DNA from: a virus
Lineage: Duplodnaviria; Heunggongvirae; Uroviricota; Caudoviricetes
IMG/VR virus record: IMGVR_UViG_3300027977_000006
DNA: 64,000 bases
Direction: 5' to 3' (one strand)
Part shown: one piece after another, positions 2,178-54,327 of the stretch
How the letters are laid out: every line of letters starts with the position of its first letter
How positions within the stretch are numbered: the stretch's first letter is position 1
Position numbers and translations under genes: made by a program
The notes under the pieces: model-generated
The model's database searches: none
What the model was told of the DNA's origin: nothing
What the model saw: only the letters and a program-made list of their open reading frames with translations

Positions 2178-2402
2178 TTATTGTGCATGTGTTTTGTAAG
2201 CCTCAACATCTTTTAGTGGAAATATTTTACCAGTGCTAGTTAATGTTCCGTTTATTTCATCACGTTCATCTATTATTACGATAATGTAATCACCAGTAAT
2301 CATCAAACCACAATCATTAAATGTTAATTTTACATTTGACATGGAATTTTTTTGGTCAGACTTTATAAGGAGTTCGACCTTTCCAAATTTTGGAGCTGTC
2401 AT
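2178..2402 (-). CDS. hypothetical protein (74 aa)
   Basis: ORF. Confidence 0.45.
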   Translation of the reverse strand: MTAPKFGKVELLIKSDQKNSMSNVKLTFNDCGLMITGDYIIVIIDERDEINGTLTSTGKIFPLKDVEAYKTHAQ

Positions 2403-3293: not shown

Positions 3294-3715
3294 CAATAAT
3301 AACAATAATAACAATGGAAACATTAAAAAAATTTACAAAAACGTGGAATATTAATAATTTTAGTATTCTTACTGATACTGGTTTTAAAAAAATTGATAAA
3401 TTACATGAAACAATTCTTTATGAAGTATACCATTTAAAATTAGCTGATGGAAAAGAACTTAAATGTGCTGATAATCATATTGTATTTGTTACTGAATATG
3501 ATGAAACTACTTTTGAAGCAGTTGGTTTAACTGAAATATTTGTTAAAGACCTAAAAATAGGTTCGTTCGTTATGGTATCTGATAATAATGGCAATTTAGT
3601 AGAATCTGAGGTTTTAGAAGTAAACAATTTGGGTTATAAAGAAATTATGTATGATTTTCAATTAAATGAAAATTCCAACAGACGTTATTTCACAAATGGA
3701 ATTTTATCACACAAC
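3201..3715 (+). other. Intein inserted in the P-loop of clpC. It is divided by a stop codon (3291-3293) and a -1 frame change into IntN (3201..3290, 30 aa) and IntC (3314..3715, 134 aa). The 23-nt spacer is made of AACAATAAT repeats
   Basis: Begins with Cys1, has DT in block A, and ends with HN followed by a +1 Thr. The insertion sits exactly between GK and T of GEPGVGKT. Confidence 0.75.
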
Positions 3716-5518
3716 ACATCAATTGTTGAAGGTCTGGCCCAACTTATTAAAGATGGTGACGCACCTAGAACACTAATAAACAAAAGAATATTCACGTTAG
3801 ATTTAGCATCAATTGTTGCTGGTACAAAATATCGTGGCCAATTTGAGGAAAGAATGAAAGCTGTTTTGGAAGAGTGCAAAGCAAACCCAGACATAGTTCT
3901 TTTTATTGATGAACTACATACGATTGTTGGAGCTGGAAACGCTTCTGGCTCATTAGATGCTTCAAATATATTTAAACCAGCCTTGGCTCGTGGAGAAATA
4001 CAAATCATTGGTGCCACAACATTGGATGAATATCGTGAGAATATTGAAAAAGATGGAGCACTTACAAGACGTTTTCAACAAGTATTGGTAGAAGAGCCAA
4101 CATTAGAAGAAACCAAAACAATTCTAATGAATATCAAAGAAAAGTATGAAAAACACCATAAAGTAACTTATACTGAAGAAGCAATTGACGAATGTGTTAA
4201 ATTATCAGCTAGATATATCATGGATAGGTCGATGCCAGATAAAGCAATTGATGTTTTGGATGAAGCTGGTGCAACAACAAATGTTGTGTTGGAAAAACCA
4301 GAAAAAATTAAAGAATTAGAAATCAAGAAAAGCCAAATCTTAGAAAAGAAAAAAGAGGTGGTTTTAAAACAAAAGTACGAAGAAGCTGCCAAACTTAGAG
4401 ATGAAGAAAGAAAAATTCTAGAGCAACTTCAATCGGCTATGGATGATTGGAATGCAACTCTAGAGAAAAAAACAACTGTGGTTGGTGTAGAACTAATCTC
4501 TGAAGTGGTTTCAATGATGACTGGTATACCTTTGACAAAAATATCAACACAGGAAAGCAAAAGACTAATGAACTTGGATAAAGAACTTACTGGTAAAGTT
4601 ATAGGACAAGATGCTGCCGTTACTAAAGTCGTAAAAGCTATAAAGCGTAATCGTATCGGTATCAAAAATAAAAATAAACCAGTTGGTTCTTTCATGTTCC
4701 TTGGTTCAAGCGGGGTAGGTAAAACTTTATTAGCTAAATTATTGGCTGAACATGTTTATGGTGATGTTGATGCGCTTGTAAGAATGGATATGTCTGAATA
4801 TATGGAAAAACACTCAGTATCCAGAATGGTTGGTGCGCCTCCAGGTTACGTTGGCTACGAACAAGGTGGTCAACTAACTGAAAAAGTAAGAAGAAAACCA
4901 CACTGCGTAATCTTATTTGATGAAATAGAAAAAGCACATGAAGACGTTTTCAACCTGTTACTTCAATTATTAGATGAAGGTCAACTAACTGATGGTTTAG
5001 GTCGTAAAGTAAACTTTAAAAACGCTCTTATTATCATGACATCAAATATTGGTGTTAAAGAAGTTAATTCTTTTGGAAAGAGCTTAGGGTTTGAAACGGC
5101 TGCGACTATTGTTAATGAAGAAAACAAAGCACGTGAGATAATTGAAAAGGCTTTAAAAAAGAAGTTCAGACCAGAATTCTTAAATCGTATTGATGAGGCT
5201 ATAATATTCAGAGGACTAACAGAAGAAGATATACATAAAATCATATATCTTGAAGTTGAAAGCTTAGAAAAACGTTTGAATGAAATGAACTTCAAATTAA
5301 AAATAAGCAAAGAAGCGGTTGAATACTTGGCTAAACAAGGATATGATGAAGCTTATGGTGCTAGACCATTAGCCAGAGCCATTCAACATTATGTGGAAGA
5401 TGCTGTTGCTGATGAAATTTTAAATGGAAACATAAAAGAAGGTGAAACAATTAGTATAGATTTTATTAAAGAAAAAGAAGCCATAATAATAAAGGGTAGT
5501 AAATCTAAATCTAAATAA
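3314..5518 (+). CDS. clpC: ClpC-like AAA+ chaperone, C-terminal part: a 134-aa intein C-fragment ending NGILSHN, then the extein TSIVEGLAQLI..., the rest of NBD1, a short middle domain and NBD2 (second Walker A GSSGVGKT; sensor and arginine-finger regions)
   Basis: The intein TxxH-like block (KCADNHIV) and the terminal block NGILSHN|T are present. The downstream sequence aligns with ClpC NBD1 and NBD2 (VIGQDAAV...FLGSSGVGKT...GYVGYEQGGQLTE...DEIEKAH...GARPL). Confidence 0.8.
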   Translation: METLKKFTKTWNINNFSILTDTGFKKIDKLHETILYEVYHLKLADGKELKCADNHIVFVTEYDETTFEAVGLTEIFVKDLKIGSFVMVSDNNGNLVESEVLEVNNLGYKEIMYDFQLNENSNRRYFTNGILSHNTSIVEGLAQLIKDGDAPRTLINKRIFTLDLASIVAGTKYRGQFEERMKAVLEECKANPDIVLFIDELHTIVGAGNASGSLDASNIFKPALARGEIQIIGATTLDEYRENIEKDGALTRRFQQVLVEEPTLEETKTILMNIKEKYEKHHKVTYTEEAIDECVKLSARYIMDRSMPDKAIDVLDEAGATTNVVLEKPEKIKELEIKKSQILEKKKEVVLKQKYEEAAKLRDEERKILEQLQSAMDDWNATLEKKTTVVGVELISEVVSMMTGIPLTKISTQESKRLMNLDKELTGKVIGQDAAVTKVVKAIKRNRIGIKNKNKPVGSFMFLGSSGVGKTLLAKLLAEHVYGDVDALVRMDMSEYMEKHSVSRMVGAPPGYVGYEQGGQLTEKVRRKPHCVILFDEIEKAHEDVFNLLLQLLDEGQLTDGLGRKVNFKNALIIMTSNIGVKEVNSFGKSLGFETAATIVNEENKAREIIEKALKKKFRPEFLNRIDEAIIFRGLTEEDIHKIIYLEVESLEKRLNEMNFKLKISKEAVEYLAKQGYDEAYGARPLARAIQHYVEDAVADEILNGNIKEGETISIDFIKEKEAIIIKGSKSKSK

Positions 5519-16821: not shown

Positions 16822-17274
16822 ATGGCAAACTTTAATTTTAAAAAAGACTTACACCTATCTAAAACTGGTGAAATAGAAATCAAAACATTTCTGGAGAAAA
16901 AAGGTTTAACCTTTGTGTCGTCAAATGACGACAATAAGTATGATTTGATAATGCATAAAAATAATAAAGAAATTAGCTACGAAATAAAGACAGATTTTAA
17001 ATGTGCGCCATTATTTGATACTGGAAATATTTTTGTCGAATTTGAATGCAGAAACCACCCTTCTGGAATAAGTGTCACACAGTCAGATTGGTTTGTAACA
17101 TATTTTATCTACCTTAAAGAACTATGGTTCATTAAAAGTGAAAAACTAAAAACCCTTATCTCTCAAAATAACTTTCAAATATTTATAGATGCTGGTGATG
17201 TAAATAGCGAAACAAAAGGTTATTTAATTAACCGAAAAGATTTTAAACATTTTTTTAATGTCTACAAAGTATAG
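16822..17274 (+). CDS. hypothetical protein (150 aa), possibly a PD-(D/E)xK-like nuclease (YDLIM…EIKTD)
   Basis: Weak motif. Confidence 0.45.
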   Translation: MANFNFKKDLHLSKTGEIEIKTFLEKKGLTFVSSNDDNKYDLIMHKNNKEISYEIKTDFKCAPLFDTGNIFVEFECRNHPSGISVTQSDWFVTYFIYLKELWFIKSEKLKTLISQNNFQIFIDAGDVNSETKGYLINRKDFKHFFNVYKV

Positions 17275-18628: not shown

Positions 18629-19357
18629 TTAATGGTGATTAATTATAGACCATTCACCATTATACTTCTCAACCAAAGCTGTTTTTGATTCCACCCAATC
18701 GCCAGAATTCATGTAAGAAATACCATCAATAACACTAATTTCTGACTTGTGAATGTGACCACATATTACACCATCATATCCGTTTTGTTTTGCGTATGAA
18801 ACCATATGATTTTCAAAATCACCAACATATTTTGTCGCTTGTTTAACGCTGTCTTTTATTACTTTAGACAAAGAAAAATACTTCAAACCCCTTCGTTCAC
18901 GGTACTTGTTATACCATTTGTTTAACCATAAACATAAATCATACCCAATACTACCTAATTTAGCTAACCATTTCATATCGCTTATAAAAACGTCAAATAT
19001 ATCACCATGTATAACCAAATATCTTTTGCCATCAACACCAATATGTTCTAAGTCTTTTTTTATAAAAACATTGCCAATATTAAAAGGAATAATTTCATTT
19101 AAAAAATCATCATGATTACCCATCACCCAAACAACTTCTGTGTCTTGCGATATCTTTAATAACTTTCTAGCACATTTCATGTGTTGTTCATTCCATGATG
19201 AACCCATATTCAGAGCCCATCCATCAACTATATCACCATTCAAAATTAATTTTTCGCACTTATTATTTTTTAAAAAATCAACAACGTCATTTGCCCTAGA
19301 ATATTGAGAACCCAAATGTATGTCTGATATGATTATTGTTTTGTATTTCATGACCAA
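18629..19357 (-). CDS. LpxH-like calcineurin-type metallophosphoesterase (UDP-2,3-diacylglucosamine hydrolase family)
   Basis: Motifs IISDIHLG, NGDIVDGW, GNHD and GHIH in LpxH order and spacing; length 242 aa. Confidence 0.65.
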   Translation of the reverse strand: MVMKYKTIIISDIHLGSQYSRANDVVDFLKNNKCEKLILNGDIVDGWALNMGSSWNEQHMKCARKLLKISQDTEVVWVMGNHDDFLNEIIPFNIGNVFIKKDLEHIGVDGKRYLVIHGDIFDVFISDMKWLAKLGSIGYDLCLWLNKWYNKYRERRGLKYFSLSKVIKDSVKQATKYVGDFENHMVSYAKQNGYDGVICGHIHKSEISVIDGISYMNSGDWVESKTALVEKYNGEWSIINHH

Positions 19358-20040
19358 TAGCCAATGTCTTTTTTAAAGTATTCTTTATTATTTTTATTGA
19401 TTAAATTTTTTATGAAATAAAAGACAAAACTGTTGATTCCAACTTTTTTAAAACGTCTATCATCAAAATAAACCCTTCTTTTTAATAACTTAAATTTGCT
19501 AGGTTTTACATTTTTACTCAAAAAATAATCTTCACAGTGCATCAAATCTTCGTCAAAACCACCAATATTTTGAAAGGTATCTTTTCTAATCATCAAGAAT
19601 CCACCAACAACAAAAGGTTTGTCTAATTTAGATAACAAAACAATAATATTGGTCAGGTAATATAACAACTTTACTCTTAAATTACTATCACTATCCAATA
19701 AAACCCCAACTAAATCATTGCCAGAGTTAATTGATTTAACCGCTTCAAATATAATATTTTTGTCGTTAAAATAGCAATCAGAATCCAAAAAAAGAAAAAT
19801 ATCACCAGAGGCTTCCATGACACCATTGTTTCTCCCAATGCTTGGTAAACCTCCTTTGATAACTCTTATAGGTAAAAAGTTTTTATATTCCTCAACAACC
19901 ATCAAGGTTTTATCAGTAGAGTTTGCATCAGCAATAATTATTTCATATGAAATTGGTAATTCTTGGCGAAGTATAGAGGTTAATAAATTACCGATATATT
20001 TCTCTTCATTTTTACAAGGTATGATAATAGATAATTCCAT
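19348..20040 (-). CDS. Glycosyltransferase family 2
   Basis: IIIPCKNEE…ADANSTD, DSD (FLDSDCYF) and ED (HCEDYF) motifs. Confidence 0.65.
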   Translation of the reverse strand: MELSIIIPCKNEEKYIGNLLTSILRQELPISYEIIIADANSTDKTLMVVEEYKNFLPIRVIKGGLPSIGRNNGVMEASGDIFLFLDSDCYFNDKNIIFEAVKSINSGNDLVGVLLDSDSNLRVKLLYYLTNIIVLLSKLDKPFVVGGFLMIRKDTFQNIGGFDEDLMHCEDYFLSKNVKPSKFKLLKRRVYFDDRRFKKVGINSFVFYFIKNLINKNNKEYFKKDIGYWS

Positions 20041-20146: not shown

Positions 20147-21217
20147 ATGAAATTTTTTAGAGCAAATAAATCATTATTAGTTGAAAATCAACAAATTATC
20201 CACCCAATACAACAATTGGATGAGATAGATGCTTTGGCTTCAACCATAGATGATAACATCTCAAAAGAAATAAAAATACCAAAAGACGTTCTAAATAGCT
20301 TTAAAATTAAAGATTCTCTTAATAAAGATATTTGGCAAGATGATAAACTTAACCCAAAAGTTAGAACAAATCTAGTTGATATCGCCAAAAACTTTATGAG
20401 AGATATAGAACTTCCAAAAGGTATAAAAATCAAAGATATTATTTTTACTGGTAGCTTAGCAAACTATAATTGGTCAAAGTTCTCAGATATTGACCTTCAT
20501 ATAGTTCTAGATTTTAAACAATTTGATGCCGACCAAAAATTAGTATATGATTTTTTCTATGCACAGAAATCAATATGGAACCAAGAACACGATATAACAG
20601 TCTTTGATTACCCAGTTGAACTCTACGTTCAAGACGTAAATCATGAACTGCTTGCCAATGCCGTTTATTCAGTTCTACGTGATAAATGGGTTAAAAAACC
20701 AAAACGTGAAAAATTTGATGTGGATAAAAAAGCAATCAAAGACGGTGCCGAAAAATATATTCACTACCTTAAAGATATTCGTCAAGATTATCAAGATAAA
20801 AAATATCAAACCGTTGTTGATAAAGTTACAAAACTTAAAAACAAAATAAAAAATATGAGAAAAGCTGGCTTGGAAAGCGGTGGTGAATATAGTTACGAAA
20901 ACCTAGTGTTTAAAGTACTTAGAAGAACACCATTCATGGATATCTTAGATAGCTATAAAGCCAAATCATATGATAACCTTATGTCAGTAGTTGAAAATGT
21001 AAACGAAAATATATCTAGTAAAGAAGAACAAATAATAGCAAAATATAGAATAGGTAAAAACTCCAAAGTCCAATTTAAAAATGACCCTAAAACATATTAT
21101 GTGAAAAATATATCAGCCGATAGAAAGAATTTGTTCGTAACTCTTAATAACCTACAAACATATAGCAAAAGAATAAGCAACCTAATTAAAGTAGATGAAA
21201 AAGACGTAAAACTATGA
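20147..21217 (+). CDS. Pol-beta superfamily nucleotidyltransferase domain protein
   Basis: FTGSLANYNWSKFSDIDLHIVLDF matches G[SG]x9-13DhD. Confidence 0.5.
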   Translation: MKFFRANKSLLVENQQIIHPIQQLDEIDALASTIDDNISKEIKIPKDVLNSFKIKDSLNKDIWQDDKLNPKVRTNLVDIAKNFMRDIELPKGIKIKDIIFTGSLANYNWSKFSDIDLHIVLDFKQFDADQKLVYDFFYAQKSIWNQEHDITVFDYPVELYVQDVNHELLANAVYSVLRDKWVKKPKREKFDVDKKAIKDGAEKYIHYLKDIRQDYQDKKYQTVVDKVTKLKNKIKNMRKAGLESGGEYSYENLVFKVLRRTPFMDILDSYKAKSYDNLMSVVENVNENISSKEEQIIAKYRIGKNSKVQFKNDPKTYYVKNISADRKNLFVTLNNLQTYSKRISNLIKVDEKDVKL

Positions 21218-22007: not shown

Positions 22008-23390
22008 TCAAAATATATTGTCAAGCTCCTCAACCGCATTCACTTGAACAACGTTGTTATTATATTTAATCAAATAGAATTTATCACTCTCTTCAGCCAG
22101 TTCCATCTCTTTGCTAATCATAAAATCTATCAACATCTTATTTACCCTATCATTTAACTCTTTAGGTGCTTCAGCATTATATTTTCCCCTAAACTGAACA
22201 TTCTTTAATACCTTCTTCTCAACATTCCTATACGTTGGAATTCCACCCTCATAACTCTCCTTTACCTGAAAACTCTCAGTTACATGAGATAATTCCAATG
22301 TATAACCGTCAACATGATATATAGCACACTGCCCCTTCTCAACCTTGTTGATATACGTACCAACACAATGATTCTGAATCATACCTTCAGCCAACATATC
22401 TTTGTTGGTAGATAATAAGTTGAACCCAGAATACTCAGCAAAAGCCTTGTAAATAGGACGTATATTCAAATCATACTCCAACTCACATTCCAAGATAATC
22501 CTAGTAATCTCCTTGGCCCATGTATCATGCTCCTCCTTTAATCTCTTTAATCCCCATTTGCAATTAACCTTCCTTCCAAGAGTCCTAGCCATTTTACACG
22601 TATCATAAAAATAAGGTGAATTAATCATCTCATCAGTCAAAAGGTCCACCCCATCCAATGACTTCATAAGCTCCTTCCAATGCTTTACCCCTTTGCCAGA
22701 CTCAGATACCATTTGTTTAAATGTCTTGCTCTCAGCAATCATCATGCCCAACTTGTGATGAACCCCAAGCACTTGCCGTGTCATGTCCTTTAACTTGAAT
22801 AACTCATCCTCAACAACCTTGTTGAATGTTAAACTACGTGAAACCTTGCTCTCATGAACGGTCTTGAACCAATGAAAACGATTGTAAAAATAATCATAAA
22901 TCTTTGACTTTTTTATATTGCCATCATTTTCACCATAAACATAGATGTTCTCATGGTTATTGATGAAAATAGTTAGATTGCCAAATGTTAATGGCTGAAA
23001 ATTCTTGTTCTGGTTAACCCAAAATTTATTTTTCACATATATAATGCTGGCATCCTTCTTCTGAGAACTATATATTTTATTGGTCGTGCTAATCCCAAAA
23101 GAAGTAGTAAAACTACACACCTCAAAATCACCATTATCAAATTCAAATAATACAAGCCGCCTAAACGAAAAATAACCCCTGCCTTTGTTGAAAAACTTCA
23201 CCCTAGCCTTTAATCGGTTCTCCTTGTAAACCCTAAATAATTCATTTACCTCATTGTTGCTGGATTCATACAATACCTTATGACTTGTACAAACACTCTT
23301 CTCACCATCTGCCTTTTTCTTTACCCTCTTCTTGGGCTTGACTTCCTTGATTTCTTTGATAACCCTTGGTTCAGTTAATAACTTTGTCAT
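22008..23390 (-). CDS. hypothetical protein (460 aa), possibly PcfJ-like (EGxxxNHCVGTY…CAIYH)
   Basis: Motif recall only. Confidence 0.4.
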   Translation of the reverse strand: MTKLLTEPRVIKEIKEVKPKKRVKKKADGEKSVCTSHKVLYESSNNEVNELFRVYKENRLKARVKFFNKGRGYFSFRRLVLFEFDNGDFEVCSFTTSFGISTTNKIYSSQKKDASIIYVKNKFWVNQNKNFQPLTFGNLTIFINNHENIYVYGENDGNIKKSKIYDYFYNRFHWFKTVHESKVSRSLTFNKVVEDELFKLKDMTRQVLGVHHKLGMMIAESKTFKQMVSESGKGVKHWKELMKSLDGVDLLTDEMINSPYFYDTCKMARTLGRKVNCKWGLKRLKEEHDTWAKEITRIILECELEYDLNIRPIYKAFAEYSGFNLLSTNKDMLAEGMIQNHCVGTYINKVEKGQCAIYHVDGYTLELSHVTESFQVKESYEGGIPTYRNVEKKVLKNVQFRGKYNAEAPKELNDRVNKMLIDFMISKEMELAEESDKFYLIKYNNNVVQVNAVEELDNIF

Positions 23391-25422: not shown

Positions 25423-26307
25423 TTAGTTTAGTTCGGCAAATACAAGTTCGTGGGCTTTCGTGTTAAGGTCGTTTGCCCTTGCATATAGTATGCTTTCGAT
25501 ATTGCCTTCTGCGAGGTTGTGGGTAGTGTAGCGTGTAACACCTTGCAACAAGCTAAAGAGGTTTGCACCTGTATTTTGCATTTCGATTGCAACGGCTTGG
25601 TTTATGCTGTCTAAAATGTTACGCTTACGAGTGTTAAGGTCGTTGTATTCCTTAACATCATAGCCTGTTAATTCAGTCATAAACTTGTCAATATCGGCTT
25701 GTCTGATTGACTTTAAAGCGGCATTATTAAGAAGTTGCACATGGCTTTCAGTCATAGCAGCAGCCTTAACGATTTCGTTTGTAAAGTAGGCTATTTTGCT
25801 AACATTGCCCTGTGTATTTTTCATAGCAAGGTCAACATCTTTGCGCCAATTTTTCGCACCATTGGCACACCATAGGCGCAAAGAGTAAAATCCTAAAGAC
25901 ATTTTAGTTTTACCATCAAAGCCTGTGCGGAACTCTAAAGAGGTTTCCAACGTATCGCCTACCATAGGGGTTTCGATTTCGTATTTTTTGTAAGGCAAAC
26001 GAAAGGCAATTTTTGAACCGCCATAGTATTCGTTATATGTTAGTTTGGTAAGGTCTAAGTCAATACCGCTATTCAATACGCTGTGTTCAATAGCATCTAA
26101 GAATAGCTGTAAGTTCATAGGCTCAAATTGGCTACCAACAACGCCCAAAGGTTTACCGCCTGTGTGCTTATATACACCAAAGGCTTCGGGGCTATCAAAG
26201 CCTTCAATACCGCTATGTAGCTGTATTTTTTTGGCTTGTAGCACTTGGCTTTTAAGGGTTTCAATGTGGTTTACTTGGGTTTCGATTGTTTCAAAAATGC
26301 TGTTCAT
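25423..26307 (-). CDS. DUF932 (phage/plasmid-like TIGR03299-type) protein
   Basis: GKPLGVVGSQFEPMNLQ and SLRLWCANGA resemble the DUF932 conserved blocks; local GC is clearly higher (~45%). Confidence 0.5.
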   Translation of the reverse strand: MNSIFETIETQVNHIETLKSQVLQAKKIQLHSGIEGFDSPEAFGVYKHTGGKPLGVVGSQFEPMNLQLFLDAIEHSVLNSGIDLDLTKLTYNEYYGGSKIAFRLPYKKYEIETPMVGDTLETSLEFRTGFDGKTKMSLGFYSLRLWCANGAKNWRKDVDLAMKNTQGNVSKIAYFTNEIVKAAAMTESHVQLLNNAALKSIRQADIDKFMTELTGYDVKEYNDLNTRKRNILDSINQAVAIEMQNTGANLFSLLQGVTRYTTHNLAEGNIESILYARANDLNTKAHELVFAELN

Positions 26308-26338: not shown

Positions 26339-26386
26339 GTGCAAATATCGAAATAACTTTTGAGATTTCCAAATTTTAAGTTACTT
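26339..26386 (-). promoter_or_regulatory. Variant sigma-A promoter cassette (GTGCAAATATCGAAATAAnTTTTGAGATTTCCAAATTTT) for 25423..26307
   Basis: The first of three near-identical ~45-bp copies (also at 26546 and 27197). Confidence 0.55.
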
Positions 26387-26469
26387 TATTTAAAAAAAGT
26401 TTTTGCACATAGTGTTGATAACTTTATTTTGTAGTTTCAATTTTTTTTATTATATTACGCACGTGTGTA

Positions 26470-26538
26470 TGTATAAAAAAAATAAAAACCAGGTTGGAGT
26501 ATACTTTCCGTTCCCTTTTGAAAAACGTAACGTCTTAT
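26470..26538 (-). ncRNA. Candidate small RNA A: a promoter-proximal, ORF-free transcript with the core GUAUACUCCAACCUGG followed by a U-rich tail
   Basis: The promoter copy at 26546-26584 has no ORF downstream; a 16-nt core is shared with the rightward locus at 49719-49734. Confidence 0.3.
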
Positions 26539-26545
26539 TGACAAG

Positions 26546-26584
26546 TGCAAATATCGAAATAATTTTTGAGATTTCCAAATTTTA
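26546..26584 (-). promoter_or_regulatory. Variant sigma-A promoter cassette (copy 2) driving candidate sRNA A
   Basis: Identical to the cassettes at 26339 and 27197. Confidence 0.5.
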
Positions 26585-26605: not shown

Positions 26606-26636
26606 TTATCCACACTCTTTTTTGAGAGTGTGGATA
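26606..26636. promoter_or_regulatory. Inverted pair of perfect DnaA boxes (TTATCCACA … TGTGGATAA) forming a 12-bp-arm palindrome, just upstream of the promoter cassette
   Basis: Exact DnaA-box consensus on both strands 13 bp apart; degenerate versions at 26414-26422 and 27259-27283. Confidence 0.5.
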
Positions 26637-26650
26637 ACTTTGTGTGTGGT

Positions 26651-27169
26651 TTATTCAGCAAACATTACTTTTGCACCGCAAGTGATTTCTTTTATACCTT
26701 CTAACTTTACAGTTCTAACTATTACATCATTTTCAACACCTTGATTAGTTGCCTTACTTGGTGCAGGTTTAAATTGCTTAATAGTGGTGATTTCTTGCTC
26801 GGTAGCTTCAATACCATTAACGAAGTATTTTAGCGTTTTGGCATTGTTACAAGCGAAAAACAAATATAAGGCAGTTGTATCTTTGCGATTGCAAACGATA
26901 CTACCATTAAAGCCATCGTTTACTTTCTCAAACCAATTTTCTTTTGCTTGAAAATCAGCTTCTTTGCCTTCTTTTTTTAGTCGGTTGTTTACCATGTTGG
27001 TATAGTTAGCATTAAGTAGCATATTATAGCTAACTAACTTTGTTACCTTTGCTTTGGCTAATGGGTTGTTTGTTTTAAGTTGTTTTTCTTCAACTATTGC
27101 AGTCATTTGAGCAAATGTAGCTGAACCGCCATCATTAATAAGAGTTTCGATAATTGTTTGTTTGTTCAT
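26651..27169 (-). CDS. hypothetical protein (172 aa)
   Basis: ORF; elevated GC. Confidence 0.5.
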   Translation of the reverse strand: MNKQTIIETLINDGGSATFAQMTAIVEEKQLKTNNPLAKAKVTKLVSYNMLLNANYTNMVNNRLKKEGKEADFQAKENWFEKVNDGFNGSIVCNRKDTTALYLFFACNNAKTLKYFVNGIEATEQEITTIKQFKPAPSKATNQGVENDVIVRTVKLEGIKEITCGAKVMFAE

Positions 27170-48731: not shown

Positions 48732-49502
48732 TTAATTGTTATGTTTAACATCATTTACCCCCTTTTCTGTTTTAATTACAAACCCACTCTCAAAAGCTGC
48801 CTTGTTCTTTTCAGCACCACCTTTGCCTGTCATTTTCTTATACTTCAACCCACATATAACTCCCTTCTTATCCAAAAACCTCAAATCATCCAAATCAGCA
48901 TTTATAACTTCAAACCCTTCAAAGGTTTCGGGTAATTTGTCAAATACCATTGCTACATTTATACCTTGCTTTAGCAACTCAATTGCTTTATCATGATTGG
49001 TTTCACTTCTGCTAAAAGTTAAATGATAATTCTTTGGCAATTCCTTTTCAAACCGCTTATGATTTTTGGTATAGTCATAAAATTGTATATTAGGAAACAA
49101 CTCAAATATATTCTTACCACCCTCAAATACCTTAAACTTTTCCCATACCACATCACTAGTGCCATTAAACCTAAATGTTACAATAGCTTTACCCTCATTC
49201 TTTTTAATAGCCTTTTCAACCTCTTCTCTCAATTGTTTCAAAAAACCCTCTCTATCACTCAAAAAATACTCTGTCTTGTTAACCCTACCTTGCATTACGC
49301 TAGTGTACATTCCACCAAAACCACTACCCACCAAACAACTTTCAGCACAACCCTTACTAGCATGTGGGCACAAATTAATTCCTTTAGAATTTGCCTTGAA
49401 TGGCGACATGTACAATATGTAAGTCATGTAACCTAGCTTTTCTCCTTTGATAGTCTTTGCATTGTTAGTAGTTAACAACGGCTTTCTTTTAATTGCTTGC
49501 AT
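48732..49502 (-). CDS. GP88-family-like phage protein (256 aa)
   Basis: GINLCPHASKGCAESCLVGSGFGGMYTSVMQGRVNKTEYF resembles the Cys-rich N-terminal block of Pfam GP88; promoter at 49526-49562. Confidence 0.4.
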   Translation of the reverse strand: MQAIKRKPLLTTNNAKTIKGEKLGYMTYILYMSPFKANSKGINLCPHASKGCAESCLVGSGFGGMYTSVMQGRVNKTEYFLSDREGFLKQLREEVEKAIKKNEGKAIVTFRFNGTSDVVWEKFKVFEGGKNIFELFPNIQFYDYTKNHKRFEKELPKNYHLTFSRSETNHDKAIELLKQGINVAMVFDKLPETFEGFEVINADLDDLRFLDKKGVICGLKYKKMTGKGGAEKNKAAFESGFVIKTEKGVNDVKHNN

Positions 49503-49635
49503 ATAAATGTTTATTTGATTAATGACTGCAAAGATAGATATTATTTTGAAACTACCAAATTTTATCTCACCTTTTTTAAATTATTTTTTTTAACCCCCTT
49601 TTTATATAATAAGGTATAAAACTTTTTCTGAAATA

Positions 49636-49670
49636 AATTTGGTAATGTCATTTTCTTTTCCTATCTTTGC
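49636..49670 (+). promoter_or_regulatory. Rightward consensus promoter P1 (AAATTTGGTAATGTCA…TATCTTTGC), no ORF downstream
   Basis: Motif match on the plus strand. Confidence 0.55.
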
Positions 49671-49676
49671 TGTGTC

Positions 49677-49750
49677 AAAATTAAATAAGACGGGTTCGAT
49701 ATGAGAATATCGCAGAGGGTATACTCCAACCTGGGCATTATTTTAAAATG
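49677..49750 (+). ncRNA. Candidate small RNA B, a homolog of candidate sRNA A at 26470-26538 (shared AAUAAGACG…GUAUACUCCAACCUGG plus a U-rich tail)
   Basis: Immediately downstream of P1; contains a CGAUAU-GAGAA-UAUCG hairpin; no ORF. Confidence 0.35.
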
Positions 49751-49765
49751 TTAACGAATGTTAAA

Positions 49766-49799
49766 AATTTGGTAATGTCAAAAATCTTTCATACCTTTG
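49766..49799 (+). promoter_or_regulatory. Rightward consensus promoter P2 (AAATTTGGTAATGTCAAAAATCTTTCATACCTTTG)
   Basis: Motif match. Confidence 0.55.
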
Positions 49800-49834
49800 T
49801 GGTTTAACTTAAATTTTATCTATATGATTAGGTA

Positions 49835-49859
49835 TGTTGATAACTTTGTTGATAACTTT
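49835..49859. repeat. Tandem direct repeat GTTGATAACTTT x2 (DnaA-box-like TTGATAAC cores)
   Basis: Seen directly; related TGTTGATAACTTT / TGTGGATAACTTT / TGTTAATAACTTT at 26412, 26626 and 27275. Confidence 0.5.
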
Positions 49860-49867
49860 ACCAAAAT

Positions 49868-49904
49868 AAATTTGGTAATGTCAAAAATCTTTTATACCTT
49901 TGCA
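49868..49904 (+). promoter_or_regulatory. Rightward consensus promoter P3 (AAATTTGGTAATGTCAAAAATCTTTTATACCTTTGCA)
   Basis: Motif match; followed by ~800 bp with no convincing ORF. Confidence 0.55.
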
Positions 49905-50342
49905 TTCACTAACTTAACCCATATTATGCCCTTATGAAAAATTAAAATTACATATCGCAAAAAAATTTAACACACCTTAAATAAAGGTCGTGTTGCACCC
50001 ACTCCGTAAGGATGATGGGTTATTCGTGTTTCTCTACGTGTACTTTAAAAATGTTCTACGTGGAACGCTACACCTATACCCAAAAATTTCAGCCGAAAAA
50101 TCATCGAGAATTTGTGAAAGGTATAATACTTTTAGCAGTTTTTTCATTACTTTTTCATTACTTTTTAGATTATGTTAAATGATACTTTTATGGTGTTTAT
50201 AACCCTCTGGTAATCAATCTCCTATTTTTCAGGTGAAATCTCACCACAATTTCCCACAATTTACCACTTTTTACCAAAAAAACACAAAAAGCCTTAAAAA
50301 AAAGCAAACGTGCGAATGTGGGTACAGTTTTGTGGGGTTTGT

Positions 50343-50360
50343 GTACACAAATGTGTACAT
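50343..50360. repeat. Perfect 18-bp palindrome TGTACACA-AA-TGTGTACA
   Basis: Seen directly. Confidence 0.7.
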
Positions 50361-50400
50361 ATTTAGGGTATATATGAACCTATATATAATATGATATATG

Positions 50401-50577
50401 GGTATTATTTAGGTTATTCATTATTCTTATTTTTGCTTTTAGGCTTATCTTCTGGTGTAGGGATTATTTTGTCCAATTTAGGTATTAGGTATTTCTTTTT
50501 CCATTGTTCGAAGGTTAGGTTTAGGCTGGGGTTTTTTTTAAGAAAGGTTTCATACTGGGTTTTTAGGGTAGACATAA
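50401..50577 (-). CDS. small hypothetical protein (58 aa, MSTLKTQYETFLKKNPSLNLTFEQWKKKYLIPKLDK…), flanked by the two palindromes
   Basis: Hydrophilic protein-like ORF just below the track cutoff; no recognisable promoter. Confidence 0.3.
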
Positions 50578-50631
50578 TATGTATAATATGATAATGTAAT
50601 AGGTGTAGTATGTGTATAGATTTTATAAGTT

Positions 50632-50651
50632 ATGTACACAAATGTGTACAT
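50632..50651. repeat. Perfect 20-bp palindrome ATGTACACA-AA-TGTGTACAT
   Basis: Seen directly. Confidence 0.7.
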
Positions 50652-50707
50652 AGGTTTTAGGTGGATAAGGTAATATTGGATATTTTACTTTAGATTGTTG
50701 TAGCATT

Positions 50708-54236: not shown

Positions 54237-54255
54237 AACTTTTATTTTTGTTTAG

Positions 54256-54327
54256 TAGTCAGGACAAGATTCGAACTTGTATTCTATTACTTCCGTAATC
54301 GCCATTACCATTATCGACCACCTGACT
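54256..54327 (-). tRNA. tRNA-like element (72 nt): 7-bp acceptor stem AGTCAGG/CCTGACT, discriminator A, T-arm ACAAG-TTCGAAT-CTTGT. The anticodon and D region is non-canonical (GTAAT-GGCG-ATTAC-GGAA-GTAAT alternative hairpins)
   Basis: Hand folding; driven by the promoter-like element at 54454-54490. The overlapping plus ORF 54183..54452 is implausible. Confidence 0.4.

Follow-up and report, generated by a model that had tools for sequence, protein, structure and literature searches.

A probable family of small structured non-coding RNAs shared by unrelated Bacteroidota phages

Two promoter-proximal stretches on opposite strands of a 64,000-nucleotide piece of phage DNA, the whole of which is called the window here, are very probably genes of one non-coding RNA family that is carried by many unrelated Bacteroidota phages. 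Comparative evidence lends this confidence to an RNA that is small (about 55–80 nt) and structured, is driven by its own strong promoter and has the architecture described below. Neither Rfam 15 nor the searchable literature holds a description of a Bacteroidota-phage RNA motif of this kind; set against these two sources, the family is a new one within a known kind, the phage-encoded small non-coding RNAs. It is unusual in that genomes have several copies, in that it has spread horizontally among phages that are not related, and in that its loop is invariant although no target is visible.

A shared 16-mer and a common layout at both loci had been reported in the preliminary description, and both were confirmed. 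The exact 16-mer GTATACTCCAACCTGG is found at 26489–26504 on the minus strand and at 49719–49734 on the plus strand, and when up to three mismatches are allowed the window contains three matches where 0.17 are expected, a number that was reached in none of 100 shuffles. Comparison of the two regions in transcript orientation (26470–26545, minus strand; 49673–49750, plus strand) shows that both copies, termed A and B in this order, follow the layout UGUCAA..AAUAAGACG..hairpin..GUAUACUCCAACCUGG and continue into a U-rich tail. The promoter-proximal location of both loci likewise held, as a promoter cassette of the same class (TTTGGnAATsTCA, a spacer and a TTTG −7 box) lies 45–55 nt upstream of each copy. 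The cassette occurs 15 times in the window against 1.0 expected, and we take it to be of the Bacteroidota sigma-A type. The only ORFs overlapping the two stretches are short (21–42 aa) and unconserved.

Copy B, on the plus strand, extends from 49674 to 49745 and is defined by a covariance-model match, its fold and family-wide pair counts. Its promoter, assigned by box match to about 49636–49670 (−33 TTTGG at 49638–49642; −7 TAtcTTTG at 49662–49669), is the first of three tandem 35-nt cassettes. A 5′ hairpin of the GUC/GAC type (49674–49691) is followed by stem P1, in which GGGUU (49692–49696) pairs with AACCU (49728–49732), and between these two strands lie the hairpin P2 (CGAUAU-GAGA-AUAUCG, 49697–49712) and the invariant segment CAGAGGGUAUACUCC (49713–49727); the tail reads GGGCAUUAUUUU. 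Copy A, on the minus strand (26472–26543), is identified by a weak model match, a two-hairpin fold and its orthologues, and its promoter, again a box match, occupies 26546–26584 (−33 box at 26567–26579; −7 ..ATATTTG ending at 26548). It comprises the 5′ hairpin GUC-AAUAA-GAC (26532–26542), a P1 reduced to GUU/AAC (26529–26531 with 26493–26495), the P2 hairpin CGUUUUU-CAAAA-GGGAACG (26509–26527), the loop GAAAGUAUACUCC (26496–26508) and a U-run (26475–26488). The ends of both RNAs are inferred; since a simple scan called no intrinsic terminator at copy A or copy B, the 3′ ends were placed from the U-runs.

A scan of viral contigs with the 16-mer returned true homologues in L003/L009/L013 and in L005, each with a promoter, a differently sequenced hairpin, the 16-mer and a U-run, as well as unrelated coding matches that are due to chance. 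The concern that the 16-mer might be part of a coding region conserved in relatives thus did not materialize, because within the family it never lies in such a region. A blastn search for relatives of the motif, as foreseen in the preliminary description, led to Tenacibaculum phage Larrie (ON950054, Cbastvirus), a cultured phage. With the consensus AGAGGGTANACTCCAACC, 14 genuine member loci were found among 15 matches in viral contigs, and metagenomes contributed at least 119 loci, freshwater sites being the source of most members. R1, a covariance model of the RNA core, recovered at least 104 matches at 37–72 bits from viral and metagenome contigs, corresponding to at least 102 distinct canonical sequences. 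Among 50,697 deposited phage genomes the motif is present only in Larrie, megablast of 5 kb of the window against the 50,697 phage records gave no match, and the motif is absent from the plasmids of PLSDB. A two-strand search of 185,579 species genomes located the exact 19-mer of the core at three loci, of which one is a chance match in a coding region and two are genuine, namely on a 39-kb Lentimicrobium (Bacteroidota) contig with phage-type promoters and on a 4-kb contig labelled Woesearchaeota. Outside these two short contigs, none of the cellular genomes searched contained a genuine locus. Essentially no proteins are common to the window phage and Larrie (one weak tblastn hit), which argues that the RNA moves between unrelated phages.

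The canonical element is ordered, from 5′ to 3′, as promoter, P0, the 5′ strand of P1 (GGGUU), P2, the invariant segment, AACCU and a tail. P0 is the GUC..GAC hairpin, which covaries to GUU/AAC, GUUGU/ACAAC and other combinations, and P2 is a hairpin of arbitrary sequence enclosed by the closing stem GGGUU/AACCU. The near-invariant segment is AGAGGGUA(G/U)ACUCCAACCU, which can also be written as (G)CAGAGGGUA(G/U)ACUCC or as (C)AGAGGGUA(G/U)ACUCC followed by AACCU; the loop motif of the RNA is GUAGACUCC, with G or U, and also A or C, at its middle position. At least 19 nt, in the arrangement GG(U)..C..AGAGGGUA.ACUCCAACCU, are conserved in 97% or more of the members. Beyond the 3′ strand of P1, (R)CCUUAU leads into an AU-rich hairpin or a U-run.

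In an alignment of 102 distinct sequences that was fitted to R1, all four modelled P2 pairs change on both sides and 99.5% of the cells pair. The covariation score is 0.291 as compared with 0.062 for column shuffles, none of 500 of which reached the observed value, and with 0.003–0.05 for slid-partner controls; in an independent MAFFT alignment of 23 sequences all five P2 pairs covary. The fold is strand-specific, since G-U pairs are conserved. In canonical members P1 and a small GAG/CUC stem are nearly invariant and are therefore beyond the reach of a covariation test. The closing stem of variants reads GGC/GUC, GGAC/GUCU, GGGAC/GUCCC or GUUCGG/CCGAAC, and this concerted change of both strands argues that it is really a stem. 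Two finer structural interpretations were dropped: a boxB-like GNRNA pentaloop (GUAGA, GUAUA, GUGUA), because the 5′ strand of the small stem shifts and the loop varies from 4 to 8 nt, and a kissing interaction of the 5′-hairpin loop (..UACC..) with GGUA, because members without ACC still have GGUA.

Among the 104 members listed, a Bacteroidota −7 box precedes AGAGGG by 40–80 nt in 72, a CGTATAA box lies 28–52 nt upstream in a further 17, and a hairpin or T-run comes just downstream in 77. The spacing of the conserved blocks ranges from 17 to 38 nt and is spread over all three mod-3 classes (60/23/15), so that no frame is kept and the element is non-coding; a protein-coding micro-ORF was rejected on the same grounds. 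The earlier proposal of a functional small RNA of about 60–75 nt is strongly supported by at least 102 canonical homologues, about 50 variants, the covariation of P2 and the lack of a frame.

Whereas the homology of the two window copies stands, their equivalence does not. Copy B matches R1 over 49686–49738 with 55.9 bits (E 2e-13), as against 13.5 bits (E 0.12) over 26485–26532 for copy A; B is a full canonical member and A a degenerate variant. Despite its degeneracy copy A is a conserved gene. An RNA upstream of DUF932, at the position of copy A, is also present in L157, L158/L159 and L155/L156, where the DUF932 proteins are 88%, 80% and 71% identical to that of the window, respectively; the P0 and P2 sequences of these orthologues are unrelated, and the U-run and the loop are kept (GAGAGGUAUACUCC, GGUAGGUAUACUCC, GAGAGAGUAUACUCC). 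The looser motif GT[AG][GT]ACTCC uncovered about 50 further degenerate copies, nearly all of them behind promoters and often two to four per locus (four within 6.9 kb in L155, three in L158, four in L009), and by this motif Larrie has at least four copies, a canonical one at 19413–19466 (plus strand) and variants at 18780–18834 (plus strand), at 17007–17056 (minus strand) and on the plus strand in convergent orientation to the latter. A two-hairpin 5′ fold ending 2–3 nt before the motif was predicted for 15 of 15 variants, copy A included, with hairpin sequences that are unrelated to one another. Degenerate paralogues have dropped P1, have loops of 4 to 8 nt or have P2 moved outside the closing stem; the common denominator of their loops is GUR(G/U)ACUCC, and the flanking AACCU varies freely. 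The pairing of a canonical with a degenerate copy recurs in L013 and in Larrie, and convergent pairs are found in L020, L026, L067 and L139. As a separate observation, a promoter-like box on the opposite strand points into A-type RNAs in L158 (about 2330–2400, minus strand; a good match) and in the window (about 26400–26470, plus strand; a poor match), which would give rise to an antisense transcript.

Rfam 15 (4227 models) gave no hits in the whole window at the gathering threshold, and with the motif no hits were obtained at E ≤ 1 in eight member loci or at E ≤ 0.5 in seven others. The RNA contains the hexamers GGUUCG and GGUAGA, with GGUU pairing to AACC instead of forming a T-loop; ARAGORN, run on the window, found nothing at either copy, and tRNA or tmRNA identity was rejected for lack of a cloverleaf at the copies and in view of the GGUU/AACC pairing. 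Elsewhere in the window (54255–54327, minus strand) ARAGORN reports an odd tRNA-like gene with a two-base 'anticodon'. In L013 a tRNA gene (2370–2460) is located about 350 nt beyond the RNA and has a Bacteroidota promoter to itself; it opens with bases (UGUCAAGG) similar to those at the RNA start, a likeness that probably reflects only the shared context of transcription start. Many freshwater members have, 30–200 nt downstream of the RNA and before a convergent 110-aa gene, a conserved element of about 110 nt (..CAUCUUGAnCUUUACG..CUGAACAACUAAUUCCCUACUGUGGGGAAAAUGA..) with a CCCCAC/GUGGGG hairpin (L036, L044, L068, L084, L107, L142, L143, L145 and others), for which Rfam yielded no match. A segment at about 49985–50040 of the window, past the third tandem promoter, reads GUGUUGCACCCACUCCGUAAGGAUGAUGGGUUAUUCGUGUUU and resembles its L123 equivalent (GUAGUGUCCACCC...GGGGAUUCUGUGUUU); judged by this likeness, it may be a second non-coding RNA.

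The gene directly downstream of copy A (25423–26307, minus strand) is assigned to DUF932 (Pfam E 2.7e-4, below the cut-off; PHROG 1221) and has its own promoter with a −33 box at 26361–26373. Apart from the window, the RNA is found just upstream of DUF932 in L024, L027, L031, one cluster of eight loci and L155–L158, usually with a second promoter in between. DUF932 is thus a recurrent neighbour of the RNA, and a partnership between the two is only putative. The structure predicted for the protein is a confident model (pLDDT 88.7); a fold search with it gave no informative match and no RNA-binding-like fold, and the model offers no clue to an RNA partner. Divergent from copy B is a GP88-family gene (PF17338; Pfam E 1e-44; 48732–49502, minus strand). 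GP88 genes are also located downstream of or beside the RNA in L021, L031, nine clustered loci and L005, and in L160 GP88 adjoins DUF932. A 172-aa gene of unassigned function lies directly upstream of copy A (26651–27169, minus strand); its homologues follow a canonical RNA in L029 and separate two RNA copies in L157. SprT-like and PcfJ-like genes also occur near RNA loci, as exemplified by the PcfJ-like gene of the window (22008–23390) and the SprT-like gene of L155 (4989–5456). The PcfJ-like, DUF932, GP88 and SprT-like genes are clustered amid many small ORFs. Genes of these types are typical of the leading regions of plasmids and ICEs, and by analogy such a cluster suggests an early establishment or anti-defence island. 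The convergent 110-aa gene is common to 27 loci. Larrie has no DUF932, GP88, PcfJ-like or SprT-like neighbour genes, so that the association is not obligatory, and it may only reflect a shared early region.

For 71 members the flanks were long enough to assign the first downstream ORF: it shares the strand of the RNA in 28 and lies on the opposite strand in 34, and 9 have no ORF within 1.2 kb. In Larrie the copies at 18780–18834 and 19413–19466 (both plus strand) are oriented against all annotated genes. This makes the element a gene in its own right and not a consistent 5′ leader.

Several further observations concern the surroundings of the RNA. The 1.2 kb at 49503–50707 of the window lack a credible ORF and contain three tandem rightward promoters of the same class, of which only the first drives copy B (the second and third are at 49765–49799 and 49868–49902, plus strand). 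The layout is also seen in L123/L005, and in Larrie the canonical copy is followed by a 1.1-kb unannotated gap (L015 2790–3925); the window region may be a regulatory hub or an origin. The palindrome TGTACACAAATGTGTACA occurs in it twice, 291 nt apart (50342–50361 and 50631–50650), as well as twice in L123 and once in L160 (about 1850), and is probably a protein operator. Seven perfect DnaA boxes are present in the window; a 14-bp hairpin terminator that precedes the copy A promoter (26606–26637) contains perfect box sequences (TTATCCACA), and others are at 20719, 30087, 33521, 37307 and 37594. When one mismatch is allowed, DnaA boxes are about 7-fold enriched within 800 nt of the window copies, but not family-wide. 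In L155 (4150–4600) and L160 (3400–4100; two of about 230 nt), AT-rich iteron-like repeats separate the 3′ end of DUF932 from a convergent RNA copy. By hand count, about 14 of 24 contigs of at least 30 kb have the RNA within about 10 kb of a contig end (loci at contig ends include L005, L009, L013, L016, L017, L019, L020, L024, L078, L103, L119, L133 and L155), a position that may represent a genome terminus or an assembly break at repeated promoter/RNA cassettes. Away from both copies, the window encodes a ClpB/ClpA-like double-AAA ATPase of 734 aa (3314–5518, plus strand) with a weak N-terminal Hint-module hit (residues 37–105), and the protein may carry an intein or a Hint remnant.

As to function, our reading is tentative, possible rather than probable: the RNA would act in trans as a free small molecule, and variable scaffolds would present the invariant loop in which its function lies. 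Its partner, most probably a protein, would be a macromolecule that is conserved among Bacteroidota hosts and is bound by sequence and shape. Made early and in abundance, the RNA would be a decoy or modulator that serves host take-over or anti-defence, at a dose increased by the presence of two to four or more copies in a genome. Action in trans is suggested because there is often no same-strand gene downstream, and the loop is the likely carrier of function because GUR(K)ACUCC is retained in all paralogues even as the scaffold changes. A protein-like partner appears likelier because 19 nt are unchanged across phages unrelated in their proteins, no long complement was found in the species genomes searched and the mid-loop position is free. 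No single pairing partner explains this free position (G/U, also A/C), and guided base-pairing to a long target is less likely than binding of a macromolecule. A 5′ hairpin together with a 3′ hairpin or U-tail is the usual mark of a stable RNA, and the early accessory context with its DUF932, GP88, PcfJ-like and SprT-like neighbours counts for an early role. Against this reading, imperfect 13-mer complements are mildly enriched, which leaves room for short-seed pairing, and the 28 of 71 members with a same-strand gene downstream leave room for a role in cis in some contexts. A more specific version of the same reading, which we regard as less likely, is a horizontally mobile anti-defence or host-takeover decoy whose GAGGGUA(G/U)ACUCC loop would capture and disable a conserved Bacteroidota protein; examples would be a ribonuclease, an immune effector that senses RNA, or part of the machinery for transcription or translation.

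A regulatory antisense sRNA, in which the C/A-rich single-stranded ACUCCAACCU would serve as the seed for pairing to a G-rich site (AGGUUGGAGU) of its target, either a stable RNA or an mRNA of host or phage, is unlikely but deserves to be weighed. The 5′ hairpin, the accessible conserved stretch and the U-tail make up the classical layout of a trans-acting sRNA, and complement-like 13-mers are more numerous in the window than for permuted patterns (29 vs 15 ± 6; p ~0.03), mostly on the coding strand (minus strand, 22 vs 9.7 ± 4.6). The best of these complements, with two mismatches, lies within the GP88 gene at 48838–48850. However, the window contains no complement with fewer than two mismatches and no convincing site, and the suggested targeting of early mRNA leaders is conjectural. 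In addition, the complement of the 19-mer is absent from 185,579 species genomes, a scan that rules out a long antisense guide to a sequenced bacterium, and with GUR(K)ACUCC as the constant part of the variants and AACCU free, the constant seed is reduced to 5 nt, the K position tolerating G, U, A and C. P1/P7 C4 antisense RNA and lambda OOP RNA are phage-encoded small regulatory RNAs which, like the family described here, are small, are each equipped with a dedicated promoter and terminator, conserve their arrangement of hairpins and occur in many phages; they pair with nearby phage mRNA, whereas no complementary site was found near the phage RNA. HK022 putL/putR and lambda nutL/nutR are promoter-proximal RNA elements of phage early operons, and the resemblance to these homologous structured RNAs of about 60–70 nt, with two hairpins, just past early promoters and on opposite strands, speaks for a cis-acting leader, be it a put/nut-like antiterminator or a riboswitch with P1 and the U-run as terminator. 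The copies follow early promoters directly, on both strands and in several transcription units, the two hairpins were predicted in 15 of 15 variants, the promoter box is 40–80 nt upstream in 72 of the 104 members listed, the U-run comes directly after P1 in the CCUGG sub-group, and a same-strand ORF, often DUF932 at about 130–150 nt, lies within about 400 nt in 28 of 71 members. Such a leader is nevertheless distinctly unlikely. The put and nut elements act in cis on their own polymerase, ahead of genes that they help to express, whereas at least half of the members of the phage RNA family lack a same-strand downstream gene (34 of 71 with an opposite-strand ORF and 9 of 71 with none), a placement unlike that of put and nut in their operons, and the Larrie copies are oriented against all genes. 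The phage RNA is usually followed by a terminator and by a new promoter ahead of the next gene, and it has no sequence or Rfam similarity to put/nut. As regards a riboswitch, the downstream genes are heterogeneous (DUF932 at 8 loci, GP88 at 9, many others or none), and variants without P1 keep the loop alone although an aptamer should need the whole junction.

A catalytic or ligand-binding RNA could be a self-cleaving ribozyme of a new type or a free aptamer that sequesters a small molecule, for instance a nucleotide of immune signalling. It would fit the conservation pattern, known from ribozymes and aptamers, of a three-way junction of about 50 nt in which the stems covary freely and about 20 junction and loop nucleotides are near-invariant, and also the lack of an Rfam match. 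It is improbable, however, given that paralogues without P1, with an altered loop or with a moved P2 are conserved in place, which is hard to reconcile with a precise tertiary fold, and that the sequence has no sign of a cleavage site. Similarly, a transcript associated with a replication origin or regulatory hub, as primer or activator, would account for the location of copy B at the head of 1.2 kb that lack ORFs and contain three promoters and, twice, the palindrome TGTACACAAATGTGTACA, for the same layout in L123, for the copies that point into AT-rich iterons in L155 and L160, and for the enrichment of DnaA-box-like sites near both window copies. This explanation is very improbable, since DnaA boxes are not enriched family-wide (0.53 vs 0.58 per kb), many members are located between ordinary genes, and neither multiple copies nor a single loop conserved across unrelated replication systems is expected of origin transcripts. 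An element that acts as DNA, be it a site of recombination or protein binding or the debris of repeated promoters, without a functional RNA, is exceedingly improbable: the window copies are mutually inverted and their promoters are themselves repeated cassettes, but covariation preserves pairing on the transcribed strand only, with conserved G-U pairs, the distance to the promoter is fixed, and pairing is kept though the hairpin sequences are unrelated among members. Cas13b (type VI-B) systems are largely confined to Bacteroidota. We consider it just as remote that the RNA is an RNA anti-CRISPR in the form of a solitary mimic of their direct repeat. By eye the 3′ halves are alike, the repeats ending in ..GAAGGGUACACACAAC or ..GAGUGGUAUAGACAAC (PMC13187072, Dataset EV2) and the RNA in ..GAGGGUAGACUCCAAC or ..GAGAGGUAUACUCCAAC, with GUU/AAC closing both, and PMC13187072 describes a lowering of crRNA levels from a VI-B array by extraneous crRNA supplied in trans. 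No mimic of type VI has been reported (PMC10651486). Mimicry of the Cas13b repeat is disfavoured because R2, a covariance model for which 26 VI-B/Bt/F repeats were taken from Dataset EV2 of PMC13187072, matched none of the RNA copies at E ≤ 10 (window, L015, L155, L158, L020), because AGGGUA is the 3′ strand of an internal stem in the repeat whereas the hairpin of the phage RNA is separate and variable, and because ACUCCAAC is in none of the repeat tables; for CRISPR mimics of any type, no array with the exact 19-mer was found in the 185,579 species genomes. Racrs, the RNA anti-CRISPRs that consist of solitary repeat units (PMC10651486), are similar to the phage RNA in that they are single small non-coding phage RNAs near anti-defence-type genes and are thought to be decoys for host proteins. 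They are, however, defined by identity to a host CRISPR repeat, whereas the phage RNA matches none of the repeat models tested.

The T4 stable RNAs C and D (species 1 and 2) are orphan phage RNAs. They are small, stable and abundantly transcribed RNAs without a known target or function, and in these respects they are comparable to the family described here. They differ in being restricted to T4-like phages, where they lie in the tRNA cluster, whereas the RNA studied here is distributed across unrelated Bacteroidota phages, is multi-copy and has no link to tRNA genes.

To our knowledge, only a few families of structured RNAs encoded by phages have been defined, with hardly any from phages of Bacteroidota, and Bacteroidota themselves have neither Hfq nor ProQ; translation initiation in these bacteria is largely independent of Shine-Dalgarno sequences. 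Our analysis adds a family of more than 100 distinct members, with one covariation-supported hairpin and a 19-nt near-invariant core that is found across phages unrelated in their proteins. Its conservation and multi-copy nature, together with its near-absence from cellular genomes, point to an interaction with something conserved in the host. If the RNA were indeed a decoy for a host protein, it would represent a protein-free counter-measure distinct from CRISPR-repeat mimics. The cultured pair of Tenacibaculum and phage Larrie makes its function directly testable and, even if its role should turn out to be modest, the family deserves an entry in Rfam and fills unannotated gaps in many phage genomes.
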